This document shows positions 1,617 to 28,230 of a DNA stretch of 28,230 nucleotides, piece by piece. The notes under the pieces were generated by a model. That model was not told the origin of the DNA and did not search any database. It saw only the letters and a list, made by a program, of their open reading frames with translations. The position numbers and the translations under genes were made by a program. The first letter of the stretch is position 1; every line of letters starts with the position of its first letter. The DNA is from a virus: IMG/VR virus record IMGVR_UViG_3300022753_001925; one strand, given 5' to 3'.

Positions 1617-2426
1617 GTGGGTCAGAAGAATTCAGACGTGATATACTTTTTAGAACAGCACAAGCAAGAAATAATAAATAATTGCAAAAAAGGAATGAGT
1701 AACAATGAGGTACGCGAAATACTGAAAACCAAATACGGAAGAGATGTAGCAGATAATACCTATAGAAAATTCAAGGCAACGCTAAAACTAAACAAGAATG
1801 ATTTCCTGGAAACCTTACTGGATGAAATCATTACCATGAAAACGGCTGGGGCCACAGATGAAAACGTTCGAAGGTGGTTAGCTGACGAACACTTATTTGA
1901 AGTTAGTCGAGCTTCATTTTCACGGTTCAAAAAGAAATACCAATTAAGGGATAAGGACAAAGACCCCAGAGCCCAAGACAAAGAAACATTAACTAATCGA
2001 GCAATATCACAAGGCCAACTACTAGACAATGACATCCACACCGATAATATAGATACAGCTATTGATACAATACTACAGCAACAGGTAACTGATATTAAAA
2101 CCGGCCTTAACAATCTTGACAAGATAACCAAGAATGCAGTGAATATTGAAATTGATTTTGCAAAGCTTGATCAGGAAATACGATTTAATGCTAATGAAAA
2201 AAGCTTAGCTAGATATTTACTGGATTTGGCTGAATTGAAAATTCGTTATTTAGAATTATCTGTTAAAGCATTTGATGCGAAAAATAAACTATTTAAAGAT
2301 GAGATGGACAGACTCTTTAAAAACAGAGTCCTTGAGCTAGAAGATAAGAAAATTGAAATCTCACAAAAAGATTTGATGAATGAAATTGAAGTCCTTGCAA
2401 AGCAAATAGATGATAATAATGTATGA
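1617..2426 (+). CDS. Probable terminase small subunit (two tandem HTH-like repeats + helical region)
   Basis: GGAGGA RBS and GTG start. Overlaps the TerL start. Two similar helical repeats (EIINNCKKGMSNNEVREIL..TYRKFK / EIITMKTAGATDENVRRWL..SFSRFK). Confidence 0.6.
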   Translation: MGQKNSDVIYFLEQHKQEIINNCKKGMSNNEVREILKTKYGRDVADNTYRKFKATLKLNKNDFLETLLDEIITMKTAGATDENVRRWLADEHLFEVSRASFSRFKKKYQLRDKDKDPRAQDKETLTNRAISQGQLLDNDIHTDNIDTAIDTILQQQVTDIKTGLNNLDKITKNAVNIEIDFAKLDQEIRFNANEKSLARYLLDLAELKIRYLELSVKAFDAKNKLFKDEMDRLFKNRVLELEDKKIEISQKDLMNEIEVLAKQIDDNNV

Positions 2427-3828
2427 TGAAAACAACCGATTCTATTTAGATGCAAGAGATAAAGCTATTCTTCAGAAATGTGTATATGAGAATCCATATA
2501 TACCATTCAAACCATTCATCAAACAAGCTGAGATGATTCTAGCTACTGAAAAAGAAGTATTGATTGGTGGTGCTGCCGGAGGCAGTAAATCCACCAGCTT
2601 ACTTATGAGAGCCTTATTTTATGTACAGGATGATGCTAATGAGTATCATGCACTAATTTTAAGAAGAACATTATCCGATTTAAAAAGGAAAGGTGCTTTA
2701 ATCCATAAGGCCAGTCAATGGCTTAACAGGAAAGAAATTCAAAGAGACCCAGCTATTAGGGTTAAGTGGGATGGTACTGAACATTCATGGACTTTTCCAA
2801 ACGGCAATTCATTAACATTCGGATATTTGCGTAACATTAACGACCTCGATACTTATCAAGGTTCTGAATATCAATTCATTGGCATTGATGAGTTAACACA
2901 ACTGGAGCGCTTTAAATATATCTATATGCGTTCACGTGTCAGGAAAACTAAAGACAATAAACTTCCAACTCAACTGATGGCTTCAAGTAATCCTGGTAAG
3001 CGGGGTAACAAGTGGGTGCGCGAAAGATTTATTGAAAAGATAGATGAGGACATTCAGGACAAAGACCAGATAAGATTCATATCCTCCAGTTATGTGGATA
3101 ATATCTATTTAGACCGTAAGGACTATGAAGAATATCTTATGGGATTGGATAGGGTGACACGGGAACAGTTAATGAATGGTAACTGGTATGCTACCGTTAA
3201 AGGTGAGCTATTTGATGAATCGGATTTCCACTTGATCTCTCACGATGAGTATATGAAAATTCCGATCATTAGTGTTATCAGGTATTGGGATCTTGCAGCT
3301 ACTGAAGTCATAAGTGACAGCACCAGGAGAAATGATGATTCGGATTTCACCGCAGGTGTCATGCTGGCAAAAGACTTGAACGGCAATATCTATATTCTTG
3401 ATTCATACGAGTTTCAATTGGAATCACGGAACTTAATTAATGAGATTATCAATACTGCTGCACGTGATAAAGCGGACACTCAATATATAGAACTTGACGG
3501 AAGTACAGGTAAAAACTTCGGCCTGTTAATCATTGATGAATTAAACAGACGTGGATTCAATACCGGTACTGGTAACTCCCGTGAGAATAAAGTTGACAGG
3601 GCCAGAAGAGTGTCAGCTGATATTCAGCTCAATGGAATATATCTGGTTGGAAAGGATAGAACAGGGTTTACTAAAAAATGGGCTATGGAATTTTTGGAAA
3701 AAATAACTGCATATCCTAATGAATCAATACATGACGATTGTGTTGTTGCCTTTACTGGAGCATATGAAAAACTGGCTTCACAAAACCAACCTAAAAGAGT
3801 TGATGTCGATAAATGGTATTCTACTTGA
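2410..3828 (+). CDS. terL: Terminase large subunit
   Basis: Walker A-like GGAAGGSKS, ILRRT, Walker B FIGIDELTQ, SSNPG coupling motif, nuclease RYWDLA ... HDDCVVA. Confidence 0.95.
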   Translation: MIIMYDENNRFYLDARDKAILQKCVYENPYIPFKPFIKQAEMILATEKEVLIGGAAGGSKSTSLLMRALFYVQDDANEYHALILRRTLSDLKRKGALIHKASQWLNRKEIQRDPAIRVKWDGTEHSWTFPNGNSLTFGYLRNINDLDTYQGSEYQFIGIDELTQLERFKYIYMRSRVRKTKDNKLPTQLMASSNPGKRGNKWVRERFIEKIDEDIQDKDQIRFISSSYVDNIYLDRKDYEEYLMGLDRVTREQLMNGNWYATVKGELFDESDFHLISHDEYMKIPIISVIRYWDLAATEVISDSTRRNDDSDFTAGVMLAKDLNGNIYILDSYEFQLESRNLINEIINTAARDKADTQYIELDGSTGKNFGLLIIDELNRRGFNTGTGNSRENKVDRARRVSADIQLNGIYLVGKDRTGFTKKWAMEFLEKITAYPNESIHDDCVVAFTGAYEKLASQNQPKRVDVDKWYST

Positions 3829-3871
3829 ATAGCTATCGTTAACGTGGATATTAATCGTTAATGTTAATGTT

Positions 3872-4424
3872 TGGACTTTATCATGGAGTTGATGTACATG
3901 AGCATGGACATATTATGGACTGGTCTATGGACTAACTATGGACTACCTTGTGGACTTGATGGACTACATTATGGACTAACTATGGACTATATTATGGACT
4001 GTTTATGGACTAATCAATGGACAAAGTATGGACTAACCTATGGACTGTTTATGGACTAAGTTATGGATGGACTTAAATTTGGACTACAAATGGACTTATG
4101 GATGGACGGATGGACATGTGGACATGACCAAATCAGGTATACCCCCCAAGTGAATTTAATCCAAGCCCAAATTGAGCTTCTTTTTTTAGGGTGTCCATAG
4201 CTATGGACTAACTATGGACTATGTTATGGACTGTTTATGGACTGGACTATGGACTACTTTTTTCATATTTTGTGAAAAATTGTTGCCTGCGAATATAGTC
4301 AGGCGAATATAACATTGTTATCTTTCCAGAATCTACGCAATTTTCAGGGGGTACACATTTTTTTGGGTAGTCCATATGGACGGATGGATGGACTACAGTC
4401 CATTTTATGGACTATGTTATGGAC
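3872..4424 (+). repeat. TGGAC (consensus TATGGACT) direct-repeat array in three clusters, 31 forward and 3 inverted copies
   Basis: Counted by hand: 21 copies in 3872-4123, 6 in 4204-4254, 4 in 4377-4424. Mostly alternating 11/12-bp spacing. Palindromes GTCCATAGCTATGGAC (4193-4208) and GTCCATATGGAC (4370-4381). Confidence 0.95.
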
Positions 4425-4668
4425 TGTTTACAGTGCAACAGTTCACTCTGTCGCGCAAAAATTCATCCCGCGAAAAAATCAACATAATAATTTTTTTGCA
4501 ATTTTACAATTGTAAAATTCTAACTGCAATACAATTTATTATTATACTTAAATAATAAAATAATATAATATAATACAAATAAAATAAAAAAATAATTTTA
4601 TATTTTGCTATCATTTTATATAGTAGTAATTCTAAAAATTAATTTATATATTGGAGTGAGTGATAATC

Positions 4669-4827
4669 ATGCCAAATACTAAACAAAAATCATTTAGAAT
4701 ATCTGAAGAGTTAGCAATTGAATTTGAAGTTCATGCTAGAAAAACTCAGACAAAAGAAGTTGATCTTATAACAAGATACATAACAGAGGGATTGAAAAGG
4801 GATAGTAATCAAACTACATTGGATTAA
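4669..4827 (+). CDS. CopG/RHH-like protein, 52 aa (absent from ORF track)
   Basis: My translation: MPNTKQKSFRISEELAIEFEVHARKTQTKEVDLITRYITEGLKRDSNQTTLD. GGAGTGA RBS upstream. Alternating beta-strand KSFRI then two helices. Confidence 0.8.
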   Translation: MPNTKQKSFRISEELAIEFEVHARKTQTKEVDLITRYITEGLKRDSNQTTLD

Positions 4828-4867
4828 AATTATTGAAAATGTGTAAAAAAATAGCGATAAGTAGTAA

Positions 4868-4895
4868 TTATGAAATGACGGCAATCATTTCATAA
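4868..4895 (+). terminator. 11-bp perfect stem-loop downstream of RHH gene
   Basis: TTATGAAATGA-cggcaa-TCATTTCATAA. Confidence 0.5.
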
Positions 4896-5024
4896 CACAT
4901 AAGTTTAAACTTAATTATAATTTTAGAAATTAATTATATTTAAACTTTTATATAAAAAAGTGTATTATATACATAATATTTTTTTCGCATTTCCAATTCA
5001 AGAGTGAGAATGGAAGTGTTATAT

Positions 5025-5108
5025 ATGGAAACTGAAACTGATAAGTCTTCCAGTAGAGTGATGGAAGCGAAAAACAATTTAAACAGCTTATTATGGAAGT
5101 GTTTATAA
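5025..5108 (+). CDS. Possible 27-aa leader ORF coupled (TAATG) to 5108 gene
   Basis: METETDKSSSRVMEAKNNLNSLLWKCL*. Preceded by GGAAGTG, and its stop overlaps the next ATG. Confidence 0.3.
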   Translation: METETDKSSSRVMEAKNNLNSLLWKCL

Positions 5109-5572
5109 TGGCTGAGAAAAAAGACTTTCATATTTTAGCTGACAGTAAAATGGCATCCAAAGCCAAAGAATTATCTGGTTTAACACACAGACAGATTTTT
5201 GAGTTAGGTTGTCAGGCTGCTATAGAACAGAACAGGAACATTTTAGATGCTGAGATTTTAGAATTGAATGATGCAATGGATAGGGTTAATGAATTAACTG
5301 CATCAATCAGATCAAGACTAAAAGATAAAGAGGTTCCAACAAAACCTAGTGATGATGAAAATGATCCTGAAGAATTAAGAAGAAATATTTTACCATTAGA
5401 TTTGTTTAAAGAAATGGTATTGTATTATATGGATGATTTTGATATAACTAATTTAGAAGATTTAGGTAGTAAGAATAAAGAAATCTTCAGATTCGTTTTA
5501 ATTAATTTGGCTAACCACGATTTGAATATGGAAGATATAAATAGTTTATATGAGGATATTAACTCTGAATAA
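5108..5572 (+). CDS. Putative RHH-like + coiled-coil protein (start may be 5093 or 5108)
   Basis: DFHILAD strand and SGLTHRQIFELG motif shared with 931 and 1358 proteins, then a heptad region. Confidence 0.7.
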   Translation: MAEKKDFHILADSKMASKAKELSGLTHRQIFELGCQAAIEQNRNILDAEILELNDAMDRVNELTASIRSRLKDKEVPTKPSDDENDPEELRRNILPLDLFKEMVLYYMDDFDITNLEDLGSKNKEIFRFVLINLANHDLNMEDINSLYEDINSE

Positions 5573-5610
5573 CATTTATATCTTCTTTTCACCCCACTCT
5601 TTTTTTAAAG

Positions 5611-5659
5611 TTGCAACTGTTTTTTCAGGAATTGCAATTAATTGCAACAAAATTGCAAT
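5611..5659. repeat. TTGCAA palindrome cluster (4 copies) including a 32-bp repeat shared with 28062-28093
   Basis: TTGCAA at 5611, 5632, 5642, 5653. GGAATTGCAATTAATTGCAAYAAAATTGCAAT occurs here and at 28062 with one mismatch. Confidence 0.9.
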
Positions 5660-5918
5660 AGGCATTTGGCATGTTAAATTGTTAATGTTAATGTAAAAAT
5701 TCTTTATTATTAATGTAATTGTTTATAATTTTATATTTACTAGAATAATTTATTATTACTAGAATAAATAGTAAATAAAATAGTTATTGTATTTCTTTTC
5801 TGTGTTAGCGTTATTGTAATTGTTTTTTTATTTTAATTTCATTAACTTTATTATTTTATTTATATAAATAATATAATAATTAATATAATAAACATATATT
5901 TCAACTGTAAAGTTAATT

Positions 5919-7235
5919 ATGGAAATGGTTAAAATGGGAATTACTTCTTTTATAAAAACTAGATTGCTCAATAACAGAGTAGAACAGTACAATACTAAGC
6001 GTAGCTATTGGGGCAAGGATGAAAGGCAACCTAGAACTGATGGAATCAACACTGGCCTTGACTTGATTGATGCACTTCCTCCTGTAATTAACAAGACCAT
6101 AGCTAATGCAAGATATGCTGTTAAACTTGACGGTTACACTTCAGGAGTTTTGAAAAATAGAATTGATAAAGCTAATGTTAATATAGTTCTGGTGGATAAG
6201 GAAGAAAAGCTTTCAGCAGAGCAGAAACTAACTCTCATCCTATGGGCACGCAAGATTGACATCTCACAGGTTGCAAAGAATATCCTTCAGGCTGGAATGG
6301 TTGACGGTGAGGGATTGATTAAACCTGTTGAGCGTTGGGACCAGTCAATCGGCAAATACATTAAACCTATCTTTTTAGAAATCGGCGCCAATGGTTACGG
6401 ATTAAAGAAAGAGTTTAATGATGATAATGAAGTGCAGCTATACCTTCATGAGATGCCTAAGGATATTGTTAACGGATCTCCCGAAGAGTTCAACAATTAT
6501 GTTAGTGTTGAAGAGGGAACATTAACGGTTAAGTATGAACCGGAAGAGGTTATTAACTTCATGTACAATGAGATTTATTGCGAGGCGCAAAGCATTATCC
6601 TCAATTGCCTTGATGATATATACCACAAGTGCAATCTTGAAAGAAATCAAGTAGAGAGGATTAATAAGGATAATATTATTGAAGTAAAGCCTTCTTTGGA
6701 TAGTAACGGCCAACCTATTGTTACAGAACTTTCAGCAACTGCAAAAGAAAATCTTTATGCAGATTACGGAACAACTGCTGATTCAAATGTAGCTATTGTT
6801 CCTCCAGGAATTGAAAGTAAAATACTTGGGGGTAACAACTACCAATCTGACTATACAAGACAGACTGAAATCTTTAGAAATAATATCTTAAGGACTTTCG
6901 TTACTCCTCAGTCTCAAGCAGGTAATGAGAAATCTAATCAGAACGTGGCCGAGTACATTAACGATTCAGCTATTACAGGGTTTATTGTTAATGTGGCCAA
7001 TGACCAGAAGTGGGTGTTAAAGTATTGTAATGAATTATTAAACAGACAGTTAGAGTTAATGGGCGTTAAAGAAAACCTTAATATCTACTTTAGCTATTCA
7101 AGAGATGATGTTCTCAGATACATTATGGAACTTGATGCAAATGCTGATGAAATCTATGAGAACTATTTAAGCAACTTTGAATCCGAACAACCGGTAGGGG
7201 ATAGAGTTCTTACAGATAGTGGTGTAGAAATATAA
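5919..7235 (+). CDS. Probable portal protein
   Basis: 438 aa, lies between TerL and the protease. Portal-like succession of motifs (GMVDGEGLI, EVINF, VAIVPPG, ILRTFVTP). Recognised by pattern only. Confidence 0.7.
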   Translation: MEMVKMGITSFIKTRLLNNRVEQYNTKRSYWGKDERQPRTDGINTGLDLIDALPPVINKTIANARYAVKLDGYTSGVLKNRIDKANVNIVLVDKEEKLSAEQKLTLILWARKIDISQVAKNILQAGMVDGEGLIKPVERWDQSIGKYIKPIFLEIGANGYGLKKEFNDDNEVQLYLHEMPKDIVNGSPEEFNNYVSVEEGTLTVKYEPEEVINFMYNEIYCEAQSIILNCLDDIYHKCNLERNQVERINKDNIIEVKPSLDSNGQPIVTELSATAKENLYADYGTTADSNVAIVPPGIESKILGGNNYQSDYTRQTEIFRNNILRTFVTPQSQAGNEKSNQNVAEYINDSAITGFIVNVANDQKWVLKYCNELLNRQLELMGVKENLNIYFSYSRDDVLRYIMELDANADEIYENYLSNFESEQPVGDRVLTDSGVEI

Positions 7236-7277: not shown

Positions 7278-8261
7278 GTGATTATTATGAAGCATGAACT
7301 TTTTGAAGTTGGATTATATGACTATTCTGACTTGGATGAAAGGTTAACCAAACCTGTTGAATGGACTGCTGAAGATCTAAAACTAATAGCTGAAAATTAT
7401 AGAGGTGGAATTCCTTTAACTTCAGAACATGACAATATCTATGTAGGTATTGGAAATAAAATAGAGTATGAAGATGGAAAGCTATTCATTGAAGTTCCAG
7501 ATGACCTTGATATGGAAGGTAAAGGCCTATCTCCTAAAGTTGATGTTTTATTGAAAGATAACGGAGATTCATTTGGAATTGATACTATGAGTTTAATAGA
7601 CGTCGGCGTTACAAAGCATCCAAGAAAAATTAGATTGTTGAATTCAGATATTACTGGACAGACCGGACAGACAGGTGACCCTGAACCACCGGCACCTGCT
7701 CCGCAGCCACAACCTCAACCTCAGCCACCTGCAAAAGACACTAATGTTGCTACTACCTTATTATTAGAAAAATTGCAGGGCAAGGATGCAGAGATTGGAA
7801 AGCTTCAGGATGAAATTAATAATCTAAAAGAAGAATCTAAAAAGTACGATGAAATAAAAAAAGCTATTGAAGAGAATAAGGAATTCATTGATTCTAAAGA
7901 GGATATCTTAAAAGAATTGTCTGAGCTTAGAAAAGCTGAAAATGAAAGGAAAATAAAAGAGTACGAGGCAAAGTACAATTTTAACTATAATGAAAACGCG
8001 CAGGATAAAGAAGTTATTGATAAGCTATTATCTGGTGACGTTGATATGGAGCTAATGGAAAAACTTGCTGAGAGAAGAATTAAAATTGAAGCTAGTAATG
8101 ATGGCTCCACACCCGGCGGGAGAAATCCCGGAAACTCAGGAGATACTGGTGAGACAGGCTCAACTGGAAGCGACTCTGATGAGGATAAACCTTCTTTCAC
8201 TACTCGTGAAGAGTACAATAAAATTTTAAAAGATATGGGATTCAATAGAACTAGAATATAG
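7278..8261 (+). CDS. Prohead protease-scaffold fusion (Mu gpI-like)
   Basis: N-terminal IPLTSEH ... GLSPKV ... DVGVTKHP (His/Ser, ALTNxP-like), PQ-rich linker, acidic coiled-coil scaffold-like C-terminus. True start may be ATG 7287. Confidence 0.7.
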   Translation: MIIMKHELFEVGLYDYSDLDERLTKPVEWTAEDLKLIAENYRGGIPLTSEHDNIYVGIGNKIEYEDGKLFIEVPDDLDMEGKGLSPKVDVLLKDNGDSFGIDTMSLIDVGVTKHPRKIRLLNSDITGQTGQTGDPEPPAPAPQPQPQPQPPAKDTNVATTLLLEKLQGKDAEIGKLQDEINNLKEESKKYDEIKKAIEENKEFIDSKEDILKELSELRKAENERKIKEYEAKYNFNYNENAQDKEVIDKLLSGDVDMELMEKLAERRIKIEASNDGSTPGGRNPGNSGDTGETGSTGSDSDEDKPSFTTREEYNKILKDMGFNRTRI

Positions 8262-8332
8262 CTATGATAGTGTTTTTAGTTACTTGGCACTGGAGCTACA
8301 TTTTCAATTGAATCACTCTTTGACGAATTGAG

Positions 8333-8862
8333 GGAGAGGTGTTTACTCTTTCTACCTCTCCTATTAAATTTACAGCGATACCTTGCATTGAAACCCTTAA
8401 TGCCTAAACTAAGGGGGGACAAGCCCCCCTTTAGATTACCCATGATAGCGCAATGCAAGATAATTTTCATATGATTTCATTTAGACCTCGAACCGACCGG
8501 CAAGGGTCGGTTCTTAAATCTGACATACAAATTATTCCAAATCCATAACCTCGGAACAGGGGACAAGCCCCTGTTCCTTAAACTTTGACGTAGCTATTAT
8601 TGTTAGGTCTATAGTATTGGCCTTTCGCTATCGCTCAAGGCGTCCAGTCCGACCTAAAGGTCGGACGGAACATAAGGATTAAATTCTTGTTATTAAAAAT
8701 GTTTTTTCTCCATTATTGAATTACGGAACCGACCGGCGAGGGTCGGTTCCTCCCTATAGTATTGCTCGCCAATTCTATTCACCCCACCTATACCACGCCT
8801 CCCACTTCGGCCTCCCTTACGGTCGGCCTCGGGTCGGCGTGGTTATGGTGGGGCGAATTGGC
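8333..8862. other. GC-rich multi-hairpin element (structured ncRNA or ssDNA signal)
   Basis: Stems at 8333-8361, 8382-8459 (enclosing 8411-8431), 8490-8513, 8553-8577, 8620-8641, 8647-8666, 8725-8750, 8768-8862. Internal sequence repeats. Confidence 0.8.
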
Positions 8863-9026
8863 TCGCTTAAAACGTGGGTGTACACAGGTGACTTGATTCC
8901 ACTAAATTTTTATTTATCCTTCCATGACTATTTTTCCCAACTGGTGTAACCTATCAAATAATCAATGTTACTGTTAATTAAAATGAATGTATTGTAATTA
9001 CTTACAATTTAATAATGTATGTATTA

Positions 9027-9130
9027 CATTAACGGCAAGGTTTCTCAAAATCAATTTACTTTTCAACTCTGCATATACATCAACTACTTTTCAAAAACAA
9101 GTTTCTATTTCAAAATGGTCGCCGTTAATG
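9027..9130. repeat. Degenerate copy D of ~100-bp cassette
   Basis: CATTAACG 9027-9034, core CATATACATC 9072-9081, CGTTAATG from 9123. Confidence 0.7.
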
Positions 9131-9227
9131 TTAAAGTGGTTCTGGCTCAGCTATCGTTAATGTTAATGTTAGTGTTAATTTAATCAATGGCAACTTCTTT
9201 TGCTTTAATTATCTGATTTGAATTTCA

Positions 9228-9331
9228 CATTAACGCCAATGGTTGTTAATGTTCTTCTTTTCTAAACCCTTGCATATATATCGCAGTGCAGGGGAAAACA
9301 CCTTTTGAAATCGCAATCGTTAATGTTAATG
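9228..9331. repeat. Copy B of ~100-bp cassette
   Basis: CATTAACG 9228-9235, AAACCCTTGCATATATATCGCAGTGCAG 9264-9291, CGTTAATGTTAATG from 9318. Confidence 0.85.
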
Positions 9332-9390
9332 TTGTTTTTAAAAAAAGATTTGTGAAATGAGTAAAATTATCCTCATTTCTATTTTTGGTT

Positions 9391-9792
9391 TTATAATTCG
9401 TAGGATTTTGGTGGGTTTCCGGAGAAATCCGCAATAGTTGCTTTACCGGTTATTGTGAATACTTCAAATAATGGGTTGTCTGCAGTTTCATATAATGCTT
9501 TAACCAATTCATTGGAGTCAATTACTTTTTGTTTTAAGTCTAGGCTGTCAGTGAATTCTACTTTTCCAGCGATTCTTAACCATGCAAATTCAGGAGTTGC
9601 AACAACCATTTCACAGTTAGGGTTTGCATCTAATTCCTTAAACATAGGTTTGTTGTTTGCAGTACAGAAGTATGGTTTTCCATCTTCTTCAAAGTAAAAT
9701 AATATTGGTCTTACTTTTGCATTTCCGTCAAGTCCACTGGTTGCTAAATATATTAAAGAGTTTTCTTCTAAAAATTCTATTACATCGCTCAT
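9391..9792 (-). CDS. Pyridoxamine 5'-phosphate oxidase-like FMN-binding split-barrel protein
   Basis: YLAT..DG.AKVRP....EDGKPYFCT.NNKPMFKEL.ANP motif typical of the family. Confidence 0.9.
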   Translation of the reverse strand: MSDVIEFLEENSLIYLATSGLDGNAKVRPILFYFEEDGKPYFCTANNKPMFKELDANPNCEMVVATPEFAWLRIAGKVEFTDSLDLKQKVIDSNELVKALYETADNPLFEVFTITGKATIADFSGNPPKSYEL

Positions 9793-9854
9793 TTTTTTAA
9801 ATCTCCTAATAGTTTGTTGTTTATAGTTTATTTTAAGGTATATAAAGCATTTTT

Positions 9855-9890
9855 GTAACTAGCAAGTTACTTAGTTACCATTTGGTAATT
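9855..9890. promoter_or_regulatory. Palindromic operator-like sites upstream of oxidase gene
   Basis: GTAACT-agca-AGTTAC (9855-9870) followed by TTACCA-tt-TGGTAA, in the divergent promoter region. Confidence 0.45.
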
Positions 9891-9948
9891 AATCTTATTA
9901 CTTAATTTATTATATATTATATATAAACAAAATAATAAAAATTAAATC

Positions 9949-11136
9949 ATGACATTAATAAAAGAATTGCAGATTAATATTGCAATGAGCAATTACAATC
10001 AAAGAAGCAGTAGCTATTCATCTAATTATGATTATTTGTTCTTAGATAACTTATTGGATAGTTCTTATGCCAGTTCCTTCAGAAGTGATTTAAAAAATCT
10101 AAAGATCAAAACATTTGACGGAACAGAATGTAAAATTCTATACCTTCCAAAATATGGATCTCAAGATGCTGCCATCCTGGTGAGAATTCCAGTTGGAAAA
10201 ATTTCTGAAACTACAAAGCTGATCCTTGAAGTTCATGACACCACCTTCAGCAGCACTTTATCAACAGGTGGTGATCTGTTAATGTTTGATGCAAACTCTG
10301 ATACATACTCAAACTTTTTCATGAATTACTCAGGTTTAAGTATCAACAATGACTCAACAGATGGAGGTAAATTTCTACGTGCTAGATTCGCCCCAAGCTT
10401 TGATAGTGGAGTTCCAAACGATTTATTTACCACATTTGCTTCAGGTCAAGACTTAAGCAATAATCGTGTTACAGTAATCAGATTTAAACATATTGGTGGT
10501 AATGTTGCCGTTAATGATAATGGAACATATCCTGGTACAACTATTGGAAGTTACATGATGCAATCAGATTTTAATCTCACAACGTATCAAGAAGATATCA
10601 AAGAAACAAGCTTAAACTGGACCAGCAGCGTTAAGTCATATTGTATGTTTAGCGGCGCTAAGACATTAGTTATGGCTAGTTCATGGGATGCATATTCATC
10701 AGGCAGTGATGATGAGGGAGATTGGAAACAATACCACATTCACGGCCGTGTAGGTACAGGAACATCAAATTCATCAGATTATCTTGAAGGATTCATGAGG
10801 AACAATCCTGCTAAAATGTATCAAAATGAATATTCAGAAATAGAAATCTCTCCAACATGGTATGCAACATCTGATTTTGAAGAATACAACTATGTTGACT
10901 TGAAATGGATATTAATATTTCCATCCCCATTATTTGCAGCTAATGGAATTCCAGAAATAACAGTAACAGAAAAACAATCCAAACATGGAATCAGATTATT
11001 CAAAGGCGAACATGAATATCCTAAAGCATATAAAGGCAGTAAGCTATTGTGGGATGCTAACGATGAAACAATGGATAATACTGGTCTATACTTGCCAGAT
11101 AAAATAATCAATAAAGATTGGGACTGGGTGTTCTAG
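9949..11136 (+). CDS. Putative adhesin/receptor-binding virion protein (DUF2341-like N-terminus, beta-rich body)
   Basis: FRSDLKNLKIKTFDGTECKILY...AAILVRIP resembles the DUF2341 pattern. Ser/Thr/aromatic-rich. C-terminal RLFKGEHEYPKAYKGSKLLW knob-like motif. Confidence 0.55.
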   Translation: MTLIKELQINIAMSNYNQRSSSYSSNYDYLFLDNLLDSSYASSFRSDLKNLKIKTFDGTECKILYLPKYGSQDAAILVRIPVGKISETTKLILEVHDTTFSSTLSTGGDLLMFDANSDTYSNFFMNYSGLSINNDSTDGGKFLRARFAPSFDSGVPNDLFTTFASGQDLSNNRVTVIRFKHIGGNVAVNDNGTYPGTTIGSYMMQSDFNLTTYQEDIKETSLNWTSSVKSYCMFSGAKTLVMASSWDAYSSGSDDEGDWKQYHIHGRVGTGTSNSSDYLEGFMRNNPAKMYQNEYSEIEISPTWYATSDFEEYNYVDLKWILIFPSPLFAANGIPEITVTEKQSKHGIRLFKGEHEYPKAYKGSKLLWDANDETMDNTGLYLPDKIINKDWDWVF

Positions 11137-11907
11137 ATGATTGAAGAATATAGGGAAACTATTGGTCATAATCGTGGCCATCCAACTGGACTGAGCCATG
11201 AGGAAAAGATGGACGTTATTGCTTGTTTACTTGATGAGGGCGAAAGGACTTACGTTAACGAAGAGCATACTGCTTGGATTTCATCTAATCAATGTCGAGT
11301 CGGTGAAATGGTAACGTTAGCTGAAGAATCAACAATGGAACACACAATAGTTAAGAAAGCAAAGGAAGGGGACTTAGCATTCGGTTATCTGTTAGGTAAG
11401 GTTCAGGTAAGGTCTTCAGGACATACGTTAGTTACTGTGGCTGTTCTTGGAGATGTTTTCAGATTAAAATTAAAACGGCCTAGCTCAGCACCTATATTGC
11501 CGAACACAAGAATCTATATCGATAAGGATGGTGAATGCAATCCAACACAAGGCCATGATTTAAGACTGCTTTCCATTGTTAACTTAACGGAAAATGAAGA
11601 CGTGGAATACATTAGAGTCTACAGGCAAATGTCAGAAATCGAAATGTATCCTGAATCTCAGAACTGTCTTGATCTTGCCGACTGCAGTTTCGAGCAGGAC
11701 CAGTTCACTCACGTTGTCAATATGATCGTACCAGATGAATCCAATATCATGGCGCAGGCCAATTATGTTAAAGATTCAGACGGCGTTACTTATTGTGAAC
11801 TTCCTGATGTAGCTATTGTCAATAATGTCAGATTTGTATGGGAAGACAATAAGCTGTACATGGAATGGGAAGGGTGTGATGATGGCGAACAAGTATACTT
11901 TATATAA
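11137..11907 (+). CDS. Capsid decoration-protein paralogue with C-terminal extension
   Basis: Shares LLDEG, VTL.E.S, LG..FRLKL, YI.V.R with 22377 and 13464 proteins. Confidence 0.65.
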   Translation: MIEEYRETIGHNRGHPTGLSHEEKMDVIACLLDEGERTYVNEEHTAWISSNQCRVGEMVTLAEESTMEHTIVKKAKEGDLAFGYLLGKVQVRSSGHTLVTVAVLGDVFRLKLKRPSSAPILPNTRIYIDKDGECNPTQGHDLRLLSIVNLTENEDVEYIRVYRQMSEIEMYPESQNCLDLADCSFEQDQFTHVVNMIVPDESNIMAQANYVKDSDGVTYCELPDVAIVNNVRFVWEDNKLYMEWEGCDDGEQVYFI

Positions 11908-25878: not shown

Positions 25879-26436
25879 ATGACAAGAGACCAGGACAAAT
25901 ATGATGAGTTAATAGAAAAACATACTCAAAGAGTCGACAATTTAAAAGCTGTCACTGAAGATTACATTAACGAAGAACAAACTCCTACTAAACAAATAAC
26001 AGTTAAACTATACCCAAATACTCACAAGGCACTTAAACTAATGGCTACTGCAAAAGATACCACATTAGATAAGGTAGCAACATCAATCATTGAAACTAAA
26101 CTTGAAGATATAGACATTGTTGAATATGTTAAAGACGCAGTTGAAAACAGTAATGAATATGAAAACGGGTTTGAATGGCTGCAAAGAGAAGACATTGACA
26201 ATTCAACATATGATTTAAATGACAAGCTATTGAATAAAGGCAATCCACGAAAAAGAATTAATGTTAAAGTGGATTTAGATACACATAGAAATTTAAGAGT
26301 AATCTCAGCTATTCAGGACAGATCCCTGGACAAGATAGTTGGCTCCATCATTGAATATGAGATTGGAGAAAAAATTCAAATTGACACATCCAAATTAATG
26401 GATGAAATACTAGAATCACTTGAAGATAAAGAATAG
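25879..26436 (+). CDS. Tandem double RHH-like DNA-binding protein
   Basis: Two internal repeats: KQITVKLYPNTHKALKLMATAKDTTLDKVATSIIE and KRINVKVDLDTHRNLRVISAIQDRSLDKIVGSIIE. GGGAGG RBS. Confidence 0.85.
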   Translation: MTRDQDKYDELIEKHTQRVDNLKAVTEDYINEEQTPTKQITVKLYPNTHKALKLMATAKDTTLDKVATSIIETKLEDIDIVEYVKDAVENSNEYENGFEWLQREDIDNSTYDLNDKLLNKGNPRKRINVKVDLDTHRNLRVISAIQDRSLDKIVGSIIEYEIGEKIQIDTSKLMDEILESLEDKE

Positions 26437-26468
26437 CTAACGTTAATGTTAATGTTGGACTTGAAGGA

Positions 26469-27587
26469 TTATATTAAAGTTATATTATCCTTCGGAACAT
26501 ATTCAATTGTTTCTGTAGGTTCTTCCACCTCTATCTCCTCAAGTTCAACAGGTTCTTTATCTTTAACAATTGCTTTATGTCTTCCAGACAGTAATATGTT
26601 AATTCTTGATAGTGAGCTTGCATCTCCAAGTAAATGGTTATAGTCTTTAGCTAGTTCATTATATTTCAATTTATAATGATTAAGCTGCTGGTTATAAGCA
26701 ACTAACATTTGTGCTTTTTCTTCAGTATGCTTAACATCCATTTCAGATTTCTGAGTCTTAAGTTTCATATCAACTTCAGCCATCGCTTTGCTTAATTCAG
26801 TTTCAGCTTCCTTGATTTTATCTTTCAGTTCTTCAAGTGCGGCGTAATGTTCTGTTGGTGGAATGTACTCCTTAAGACCAATAAGAGATTCTACTTTTTC
26901 AGTTAATTCATCTATATGTGTTTGTTGTTTTGTAATAGTTTCTTTTAATTCTTTCTCAGTGGCTTCGTGATTGGACTGGAGTTCGTGGGTTGTTTCTTTA
27001 AAATTAGCATTTGAAGCTATGAGATTTTCATTTAACAATTTATTGGTTTGGTTTATCTCATCATTGGTATTTTTCAACCTGTCATTTTCTTTAATCAATT
27101 CTTCATTCCTGGCTGAAAGTTCATCAGAGGTATCCATTATATTTTCAAAGGAACTCTTCCAGTATTCATGCTGACTACGTTCTGATTCCAATTCTTCTTT
27201 CAGTTTATCTATTTCATCCTTATCATGAATCTTAGGTTGACTCTTATTTGATTCAAGTTCTTGTCCAAGTGAATCGACTCTCTCCTTCAGGACATTTATC
27301 ATATCATCTTTTTCCTGAAGCTGCTTTTTCAAATCGTCAGCGTTATCGTAAGATTTATTGTCAGCTATTATCTTTTCAAGTTCTTTTATTCTGGACTTGT
27401 ATTCATCAACTTGATCCATATCTTTGATTATGTCAAAGTGCTGCTCTTCTGAAATAACATAGACTTTTTCACCAACTTTAAATAGGGTATTGCTGAATCC
27501 TATCCTATTTGCATTCTTGGTATTTTTCTTAACTTCAAATTCAAGACCAAATCTTTCATCCGAATCTTTGAGTTTTTTCTCCACCAT
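26469..27587 (-). CDS. Long coiled-coil protein with small N-terminal beta domain
   Basis: About 300 aa of Glu/Lys-rich heptads. GGAGTGA RBS supports ATG 27587, whereas the ORF track starts at 27611. Confidence 0.85.
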   Translation of the reverse strand: MVEKKLKDSDERFGLEFEVKKNTKNANRIGFSNTLFKVGEKVYVISEEQHFDIIKDMDQVDEYKSRIKELEKIIADNKSYDNADDLKKQLQEKDDMINVLKERVDSLGQELESNKSQPKIHDKDEIDKLKEELESERSQHEYWKSSFENIMDTSDELSARNEELIKENDRLKNTNDEINQTNKLLNENLIASNANFKETTHELQSNHEATEKELKETITKQQTHIDELTEKVESLIGLKEYIPPTEHYAALEELKDKIKEAETELSKAMAEVDMKLKTQKSEMDVKHTEEKAQMLVAYNQQLNHYKLKYNELAKDYNHLLGDASSLSRINILLSGRHKAIVKDKEPVELEEIEVEEPTETIEYVPKDNITLI

Positions 27588-27644
27588 TGTTTTCACTCCA
27601 TTCCTTAACACACATATTTTTATAACAACTATATTTTATAGCTA

Positions 27645-28227
27645 TTGCAATCGAGTTGCAATTTTATTGCAACAGTTGCAACTGGGAATTGCAACTCCAA
27701 TTTTAGAATTGCAACTTTTGAACAATGTTGAAAACTGTTTAATTTTGGGTTTTTGAAAAAAAATAAAACGATAACATTCGTTTTTCGGACTTTGTTGTTT
27801 GCTTGCAGGAAAGTGTAATTATTGTAATACTTATAGTGTAAGACATACATTTCCTTACTATGCCAGACAAGTGCCATATTTGGGGGTAGTCTGGACATAC
27901 ATATGTCCCAGTAGCTGTTCGCCACTTTCGTAATATACTACAATAATCTATATACATTCGTGTAAACATTCACAATTGCAACTATTGCAACTTTTAAATA
28001 CTGAATTGCAACTTGCATTAAAATGGGGTCAAAAACGGATATGCGGGGTTTTTCGATTTTTGGAATTGCAATTAATTGCAATAAAATTGCAATTCTTAGG
28101 GGGAAAATTGCAACTAAATTGCAATTTCTCATTGACGTTAAATTTAACATTCTTAAAATTACACTTGTTCAGTTATCATTAACTTTTTTAATAAAATATT
28201 GAACAAACTAATAATTAAAAATTGCAA
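27645..28227. repeat. TTGCAA palindrome clusters (15 copies) in AT-rich non-coding DNA
   Basis: At 27645, 27656, 27667, 27676, 27689, 27709; 27976, 27985, 28006; 28066, 28076, 28087, 28108, 28119; 28222. Confidence 0.9.
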
Positions 28228-28230
28228 TTA

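Follow-up and report, generated by a model that had tools for sequence, protein, structure and literature searches.

The stretch of DNA analysed here (IMG/VR virus record IMGVR_UViG_3300022753_001925; 28,230 bp, referred to below in its full length as the window) carries, between the genes of the large terminase subunit (TerL) and the portal protein, an array of short boxes with the core TGGAC, followed by two small genes whose products resemble ribbon-helix-helix (RHH) proteins and by a single origin recognition box (ORB) of host type. Block by block, the window is 78-97% identical to the genome of 'Caudoviricetes sp. vir323' (Acc. No. BK063679.1), which is recorded as circular, 34,179 bp long, assigned to Methanobacteriales and obtained from goat faeces, and this similarity assigns the window to a vir323-like tailed virus of the rumen methanogen Methanobrevibacter. 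No other record of the phage database was matched, and the search of the plasmid database gave no match. The counterpart of vir323 positions 24,248-28,580, with the pseudomurein endopeptidase gene and four genes on the minus strand, is absent from the window, the ends of which do not overlap; the contig is probably incomplete and derived from a circle of about 32-34 kb.

The order of elements at the locus is as follows: a gene for a protein similar in position to the small terminase subunit (TerS-like), terL, the array, a stretch of 80% AT, a gene for a protein of 52 amino acids (aa), a gene for a protein of 154-159 aa, an AT-rich gap, and the portal gene (Table 1). In the Methanothermobacter virus psiM2, terS, terL, and the portal gene are contiguous and no comparable array is present, and thus the 2.1 kb that separate terL from the portal gene in the window represent an added module. 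The TerS-like protein has a single weak Pfam match (Clr5, below the cutoff) and no similarity to the TerS of psiM2, and sequence and fold searches with it gave nothing significant.

The region 3872-4424 contains 31 forward and three inverted copies of TGGAC (inverted starts at 4193, 4370, and 4398). The word occurs 66 times in the whole window, compared with 36.8 +/- 5.9 times in shuffled sequences, and none of 100 shuffles reached this number. As many as 34 of the 66 copies are packed into 2% of the window, while the 32 copies outside the array correspond to the about 36 expected and are not enriched at other promoters. A position-by-position listing indicates that the conserved word is longer than TGGAC, namely the 8-letter (T)ATGGAC(T), i.e., TATGGACT. 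Tandem Repeats Finder assigned the array periods of 11, 12, 23, and 46 bp. When neighbouring spacings of 11 and 12 bp were compared, 14 pairs alternated and none repeated, which means that the true unit is 23 bp (box, 11 bp, box, 12 bp) with two boxes per unit. The AT content of the array is 62%, as compared with 78-83% in most other intergenic gaps and 69-71% in two further gaps. The stretch directly following the array (4429-4668) is 80% AT, yet this is within the range of most other gaps of this genome. An earlier reading of the letters of this DNA (hereafter, the sequence-only reading) had listed the TGGAC starts and a count of 31, had described the 11/12 alternation as a 23-bp double unit, and had placed inverted copies that form palindromes at the openings of two of the clusters; our pattern search of 3872-4424 reproduced every start and the count, and the two other descriptions agree with what we found.

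The boxes form three clusters separated by sequence of other kinds. Cluster 2 opens with the perfect palindrome GTCCATAGCTATGGAC (4193-4208), preceded by a run of seven T residues (4181-4187). Cluster 3 consists of the palindrome GTCCATATGGAC (4370-4381), a convergent pair of boxes at 4389 and 4398, and then two forward boxes. Two further conserved palindromes do not belong to the box family and may be recognised by other factors: ATAACATTGTTAT, located between cluster 2 and cluster 3, and AATTTTACAATTGTAAAATT, located in the stretch of high AT content. In a search of positions 3700-6000 with Rfam at E<=1, the sole match was a chance snoRNA outside the array, and the possibility that the array is an RNA element was rejected, as Rfam gave no match within it.

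Table 1. Features of the window that are discussed in the text (positions are those of the window).
Feature	Position	Strand	Basis and remarks
TerS-like gene	1617-2426	+	Position and architecture only; two helix-turn-helix (HTH)-like motifs and a coiled coil; overlaps the terL start
TerL gene	2410-3828	+	Pfam Terminase_6N, Terminase_3, Terminase_6C; phrog_979 at 2.6e-82; product 93.6% identical to vir323 TerL
Outlier box near cluster 1	3872
Degenerate boxes near cluster 1	3885-3900
Cluster 1	3905-4123	+	20 forward TATGGACT boxes, mostly alternating 11/12 bp
GGTATACCCCCC element	4136-4147	+	Conserved in 10 arrays; partial inverted match to 4347-4356
Cluster 2	4193-4254	+	1 inverted and 6 forward boxes at 11/12 bp
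Unique block	4283-4365	+	Tandem GCGAATATA pair, palindrome ATAACATTGTTAT (4309-4321), GGGGGTACAC (4347-4356), T7 run; highly conserved (87-91% column identity in 10 arrays)
Cluster 3	4370-4427	+	2 inverted and 4 forward boxes
Promoter-like block	4467-4519	+	CCCGCGAAAAAATC..ATAATAA and perfect palindrome AATTTTACAATTGTAAAATT (4500-4519); conserved
TATA-like box TTTATATA	4643-4650	+	Read from sequence; about 26 nt upstream of ATG 4669
52-aa RHH-like gene	4669-4827	+	Sequence pattern; present only next to arrays
154-159-aa RHH-like gene	5108-5572	+	Sequence pattern; present only next to arrays
Four TTGCAA boxes	5611-5658	+	Same word as the 27640-28228 array; between larger RHH-like gene and ORB
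Host-type ORB TTACAGTTGAAAT-ATATGTTTA	5889-5910	-	Matrix score 20.2 bits; in 82% AT gap just upstream of portal gene
Portal gene	5919-7235	+	Product 93% identical to annotated vir323 portal
Second cassette	25879-28228
Tandem-RHH gene (second cassette)	25879-26436	+
Coiled-coil gene (second cassette)	26469-27611	-
TTGCAA arrays (second cassette)	27640-27720, 27975-28228

Our search for relatives of the array in species-representative genomes, IMG/VR, and metagenome contigs yielded twelve further arrays (vir323, L061, L062, L097, L128, L130, L133, L134, L136, L142, L143, and L145). All of them are located directly 3' of terL and, wherever the contig continues, are followed by the same two small genes and the portal gene; the array-bearers pair the array with both small genes without exception. 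The complete arrays comprise 26 to 38 boxes. Over the 13 arrays, 180 pairs of 11/12-bp spacings alternate and two repeat, and hence the phase, the conservation of which in related elements the sequence-only reading had named as a check of its interpretation, is kept. In the alignment of ten genomes, the pairwise identity is 91% in box columns, 66% in spacer columns, and 79% in the unique sequence between clusters, with the block 4310-4400 reaching 87-91%. Differences in array length are insertions of 22-23 bp and 46 bp that preserve the phase, and the inverted boxes occupy fixed places across the aligned arrays.

The conservation of boxes, the drift of spacers, and the preserved phase point to selection on phased binding sites rather than to slippage or coding, and these comparisons show the boxes and their 11+12 phase to be under purifying selection. 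The preference of the sequence-only reading for protein binding over slippage thus gains support from the contrast between boxes and spacers, the kept phase, and the whole-unit insertions and deletions in 13 arrays. A functionless product of slippage, or a mis-called small gene, might be suggested by the detection of the array by Tandem Repeats Finder and by the annotation in vir323 of a 53-aa open reading frame (ORF) at the position of ORF 3871-4059. However, neither explanation accounts for boxes that are conserved while their spacers diverge, for an alternation kept in 13 arrays, or for inverted boxes at fixed places, and we regard this explanation as hardly credible. The coding reading of ORF 3871-4059 was rejected, as insertions and deletions of 22, 23, and 46 bp break its frame.

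No such array was found in host genomes outside viral contigs, and in the two array-bearing genomes in which matches to the paired-box pattern were counted (11 and 16), all of them are on the viral contig. Tandem arrays with an ATGGACT core and a spacing of 11 bp or 11/12 bp occur also in L039 (10960-11330), in L005 (10040-10144) together with L045 (1-160), and in L141 (1-135). In L039, nine units of AATGGACTCGA come first, and inverted AGTCCG units with a spacing of 11 bp come next. The contigs with arrays of this type (L039, L005/L045, L141, and L129) have no genes in common with the virus studied here, and their arrays may represent convergence on one word.

The two genes that follow the array encode proteins of two narrow families, whose 21 and 117 sequence clusters come exclusively from this group of viruses. 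The N-terminus of the 52-aa protein has an alternating polar/hydrophobic stretch, TKQK(S/T)F(R/K)I, the presumed DNA-facing strand, which is kept down to 71% overall identity and is followed by two helices; the AlphaFold2 (AF2) model likewise comprises an extended N-terminus and two helices. The best Foldseek match of this model, a ParD antitoxin, is not significant (E 3.4). The larger protein has an RHH-like beginning, in which DFHILAD precedes two helices joined by a G-L-T loop, and its AF2 model, too, has an extended N-terminus and two helices. Further on, it has a long helix and an acidic linker rich in proline, and it ends in a helical bundle that is confidently modelled by AF2. Searches of Pfam, NCBIfam, PDB sequences, and Foldseek gave no significant match for either protein, nor did they show a resemblance to SegB or AspA. 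Of the genes named as flanks of the array in the sequence-only reading, terL is thus confirmed by Pfam and PHROGs, while the RHH genes can be described only as RHH-like in pattern, with no backing from Pfam, NCBIfam, or Foldseek. These two are the only genes between the array and the portal gene, and Pfam and PHROGs searches indicate no ATPase family among them.

RNA contigs of two metatranscriptome studies span exactly both RHH-like genes (from 4660/4670 to 5592/5647). In one of these studies, an Illumina adapter abuts position 4670, one base past the A of ATG 4669 and about 26 nt after the TATA-like box, which hints at a leaderless, actively transcribed RHH operon that starts at this ATG. 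The cover of the array by RNA is nil or very low in four RNA runs; as these data are contigs only, they carry no weight either way.

The position of the operon with respect to the boxes bears on the possibility that the array is an operator, a silencer, or an insulator, in which an RHH coat would control its own operon, read-through from terL, or a switch between carrier and lytic states. RHH proteins are typically repressors acting on tandem repeats, in one relative a short repeat of GTACACTG immediately precedes the RHH gene, and T-runs and promoter-like blocks are present between the clusters. Nevertheless, the boxes end at 4427 and leave 215 bp to the TATA-like box of the RHH operon, with no overlap, so that occlusion of this promoter is unlikely; an extent of 550 bp with 31 sites is far beyond that of any known operator, and the box is not enriched at other promoters of the window. 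A regulatory role is improbable in our opinion.

About 40 Methanobrevibacter loci encode TerL proteins 89-91% identical and TerS-like proteins 76-84% identical to those of the window, which is the same distance as between the array-bearers themselves. None of them contains a TGGAC cluster, either after terL or anywhere else in the locus, and three array-less whole genomes contain just one or two chance matches each to the paired-box pattern. These relatives bear on the interpretation of the array as a packaging (pac) site, on which TerS would oligomerise and near which TerL would cut to begin headful packaging. The location of the array directly after terL would suit such a site, the two tandem HTH-like motifs of the TerS-like protein could read the double unit, and repeated short words are present beside the cut in P1 pac and SPP1 pac. 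Yet terminase genes of such similarity do without the array in the relatives, TYRKFKA and FSRFKKKY, the helices with which the TerS-like protein would read DNA, show no variation in either group, and in several relatives the prophage ends right after TerL. A pac function is, accordingly, very unlikely. In the TerS tree, the array-bearers are grouped weakly, and three of the entries without an array that fall among them are contigs too short to reach the array position; the tree is non-discriminating.

The array-less relatives reveal what else may occupy the place of the array. In L063, host genes start about 170 bp after terL, and in L073 host genes also follow terL. In G004, a contig of 100 kb, the portal gene is preceded by host genes at a distance of 2.4 kb. 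Hence, the circular map of these integrated relatives was opened between terL and the portal gene. In nine array-less loci, terL is followed, on the opposite strand, by an RHH-type gene and an MCM helicase gene (among them L067, at 7425-9961, L071, L077, L079, L081, L087, L095, and L102), and in G004 a weak match to a tyrosine recombinase follows the MCM module. Judging from these arrangements, the slot after terL is a swap site, and the array module is located at the same junction as the attachment end or the MCM module of the relatives.

Several other features of these loci were recorded. The RHH gene at the MCM loci encodes a CcdA-like protein of 150 aa (RHH150) and has upstream of it a GTACACTG repeat (x4.5) and a CATACCCCC element, the latter reminiscent of GGTATACCCCCC and GGGGGTACAC of the window. 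Homology between the 159-aa protein and RHH150 was considered and rejected (BLASTP E 0.59; hhalign probability 0.2%); an Atlas feature match of 0.81 to a CcdA-like archaeal cluster in this comparison is a lead only. Other array-less relatives have a gene for a 564-669-aa protein with no family match in the slot after terL. In G004, about 17 kb of extra DNA is present between the protease gene and the next shared structural gene (G004:C140, ~19,300-36,200; L151 and L152), which may represent either a nested element or an extensive accessory region. In the array-bearing L061, an inserted HaeIII-type restriction-modification pair (9310-11263) separates the larger RHH-like gene from the ORB and the portal gene, which indicates that the gap before the ORB and the portal gene also accepts cargo.

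The array-bearing genomes differ from such integrated relatives in their replicon state. vir323 is recorded as circular, a near-identical IMG/VR record has terminal repeats, and the 36,922-bp contig G003 has a terminal overlap of 141 bp. Full-length array-bearing contigs are 34-37 kb long, and their break points are unrelated to the terL-portal junction. The integrase family PF00589 has no match on array-bearing contigs; Pfam and PHROGs gave no Rep, primase, MCM, Cdc6, or integrase for either the window or vir323; no window ORF of at least 80 aa has a deviant Walker A motif (KGGxxK[ST]), and Pfam scans of the main ORFs tested gave no ParA family match. The array-bearing genomes appear, on this evidence, to be stand-alone circles with no detected integrase, MCM, or ParA.

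A gene-by-gene comparison of four array-bearing genomes with the integrated G004 provirus identified the two small genes and a second cassette as common to the former and absent from the latter. Besides the elements listed in Table 1, the second cassette holds two small ORFs, and its coiled-coil protein is 372-380 aa long. Everything that is specific to the array-bearing lineage is thus predicted to be DNA-binding or coiled-coil. The boxes of the second cassette have the form (A/G)TTGCAA(C/T); ATTGCAAT occurs 10 times compared with 1.5 expected, and the window ends inside this array. Single copies of ATTGCAAT are located at 9979 and 25648.

A host-type origin element accompanies the array. The oriC regions upstream of cdc6 in two Methanobrevibacter genomes contain repeated TTACACTTGAAAT-ATACCTCT boxes, ten of which were used by us to build a 22-nt position weight matrix. 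Its best match in the window lies 1.5 kb downstream of the array, between the larger RHH-like gene and the portal gene; the next best match in the window scores 9.8 bits, and the maxima in shuffled sequences were 11.5 bits at the median and 18.1 bits at the 95th percentile. A single ORB is present at the same place, with scores of 20-25 bits, in eight array-bearing genomes or contigs. No match was found in 60 kb of the integrated provirus, in three array-less loci upstream of the portal gene, or in 368 kb of array-less terL loci. The two viral variants of the box, TTACAGTTGAAAT and TTTCACTTGAAAT, both occur also in host oriC. Likely, then, the viral ORB is a borrowed Cdc6/Orc1 site at which the replication of the viral circle starts. 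The possibility that the array box itself is a host ORB was rejected, as TATGGACT is unrelated to TTACACTTGAAAT-ATACCTCT, and the presence of a host-type ORB makes origin recognition an unlikely task for the TGGAC boxes.

This result must be set against the possibility of an iteron-type origin or of a copy-control element, in which the boxes of the array would bind an RHH-like initiator or copy controller encoded by the virus. The direct repeats would then load or titrate this protein, the inverted boxes would bind its dimers, and arrays of sister copies could handcuff. The spacing of iterons is usually 22-23 bp, as in F, P1, RK2, and R6K, and the double unit of 23 bp fits it; direct and inverted boxes are found in separate clusters, an 80% AT stretch follows the array, the module occupies the slot of the MCM replication module of nine relatives, and the ORB is in the same module. 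On the other hand, 31-38 boxes are far above the number in known origins, the only candidate initiators are the 52-aa and 154-159-aa proteins, neither of them Rep-like, gaps of such AT content are usual in this genome, and origin recognition is already provided by the host-type ORB, which is 1.5 kb away and not beside the boxes. An iteron-type function is, in our opinion, doubtful.

RHH proteins that bind centromeres coat 10-35 short phased repeats, as in R1, pSK41 (ParR/parC), pB171, and TP228 (ParG/parH). The reading that we favour, to which we would give about an even chance (roughly 0.5), is that the array is a centromere-like or tethering platform coated by RHH proteins and is part of a module for episome maintenance, in which the ORB is the probable start of replication. 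The module of 2.1 kb would comprise the TATGGACT array, the 52-aa and 154-159-aa genes, the TTGCAA boxes, and the AT-rich stretch with one host-type ORB, and would fill the TerL-portal junction in those tailed viruses of Methanobrevibacter that form a non-integrating lineage. Each box would be occupied by one dimer of the 52-aa protein, perhaps with the participation of the larger protein, and each 23-bp unit by a dimer of dimers. A distance of 11.5 bp per site would rotate successive proteins by about 34 degrees, and the coat would therefore spiral around the DNA once per about 10 sites (~120 bp), so that cluster 1 would make about two turns. The resulting nucleoprotein body would serve as a centromere or a tether, linked by the C-terminal bundle of the larger protein to a segregation ATPase or to the chromatin of the host, while host Cdc6/Orc1 and MCM would start replication at the ORB. 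Among the three roles that the sequence-only reading had proposed, the centromere-like one therefore fits best, a pac or TerS-loading site is disfavoured, and origin recognition is more likely the task of the ORB.

A more specific form of this reading can be proposed only tentatively, and we hold it to be possible rather than probable. According to it, the module is a motor-less element similar in design to oriP of Epstein-Barr virus (EBV), in which the RHH-coated array would tether the viral circle to host chromatin or to SegA-type machinery of the host and the one ORB would recruit host Cdc6/MCM for replication once per cycle, the whole of about 2 kb being a swap-in for the modules of integrase and attachment site (and of MCM) found in sister viruses.

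Several points weigh against the assignment of the array to episome maintenance. The RHH fold of both small proteins is deduced from sequence pattern and AF2 models of monomers. The RNA data are assembled contigs, the depth of which cannot rank genes. The circular assemblies are compatible also with a purely lytic virus with terminal redundancy and are no proof of an episomal carrier state. Any motor or tether is hypothetical, since the virus encodes no partition NTPase. The array-bearing genomes all belong to one lineage, so that shared ancestry may account for part of the co-occurrence of the array with the two small genes. Finally, the TTGCAA arrays and the coiled-coil gene of the second cassette are an equally good candidate for a centromere, which would leave the TGGAC array another role. 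It may be that one of the two arrays partitions the genome and the other controls copy number or gene expression.

The module bears on how non-integrating archaeal tailed viruses persist in dividing cells. In the searchable literature we found no description of this array, nor of a centromere, an origin, a tether, or another maintenance element of any methanogen virus. The related methanogen virus psiM2 can persist extrachromosomally (bioRxiv 10.64898/2026.10.07.757236). The locus described here provides a compact and testable candidate, in which 2.1 kb hold the array, both small genes, and the host-type ORB, and the sister viruses that hold the attachment end or the MCM module at the same junction represent a natural module swap. 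In the rumen and in the human gut, Methanobrevibacter is the main producer of methane. Shuttle vectors for this genus could be developed from the module, provided that it supports autonomous maintenance, and if the oriP-like interpretation is true, the module would be a ready-made mini-replicon for these archaea. The strict 11+12 alternation offers, in addition, an unusually clean geometric constraint for the modelling of higher-order RHH coats on DNA.

Among known systems, the closest working models are the RHH centromeres, such as parC/ParR of R1 and pSK41, ParG/parH of TP228 (PMC3130281), ParB/parC1-parC2 of pB171, and the omega system of pSM19035. As in these centromeres, many short repeats of the same orientation are spaced at about one helical turn beside a gene for a small RHH-like protein, and a spacing slightly off 10.5 bp would cause the coat to spiral. 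The double unit suggests a dimer of dimers, as in the case of the 20-bp repeats of pSK41, and the number of boxes (31-38) is similar to that of pB171. In contrast to the RHH centromeres, the module has no ParM or ParA gene, its boxes are off the operon promoter, it has two RHH-like genes and not one, and the spacing is an 11+12 alternation and not uniform; moreover, the replicon is a tailed virus with an archaeal host, and similarity in sequence is absent. With no ParM/ParA, no overlap of the promoter, and no similarity in sequence or fold, the array module appears to stand outside the type II and type Ib partition families. The archaeal systems SegAB/segS and pNOB8 AspA-ParB-ParA (PMC8682754) share with it the setting of archaeal DNA segregation and a small site-specific DNA binder, in our case a putative one, encoded beside its repeats; unlike them, the virus encodes no SegA or ParA and uses a different word, and neither of the two small proteins resembles SegB or AspA in searches.

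Similarities to replication and packaging elements are more limited. Iteron arrays (P1 oriR/incA, F incB/incC, and RK2 oriV) likewise have a unit of 22-23 bp, direct and inverted copies in separate clusters, and an adjacent AT-rich stretch, but they are served by a Rep-family initiator, whereas the array described here has none, contains three to six times more sites, and has two boxes per 23-bp unit. P1 pac and SPP1 pacL/pacR resemble it in the location of repeats beside terminase genes, and differ from it in that the array does not travel with terminase genes among relatives. The array would accordingly be placed, on present comparisons, outside the iteron-Rep origins (no Rep), the archaeal oriC (a different word), and the pac sites (no linkage to terminase).

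The closest counterpart in overall layout is, as a functional analogy, oriP of EBV, with its family of repeats and dyad symmetry bound by EBNA1; the tethering sites of papillomavirus E2 or of LANA of Kaposi's sarcoma-associated herpesvirus are analogous as well. The proteins and the domain of life are unrelated, and the tethering to chromatin is in our case pure conjecture. Nevertheless, both elements combine a long one-way block of repeats with smaller dyad blocks and a small putative DNA binder encoded by the virus, both dispense with a viral motor or helicase, and both have a host initiator site nearby, a predicted one in the module, on a virus genome that is, or appears to be, kept as a circle.

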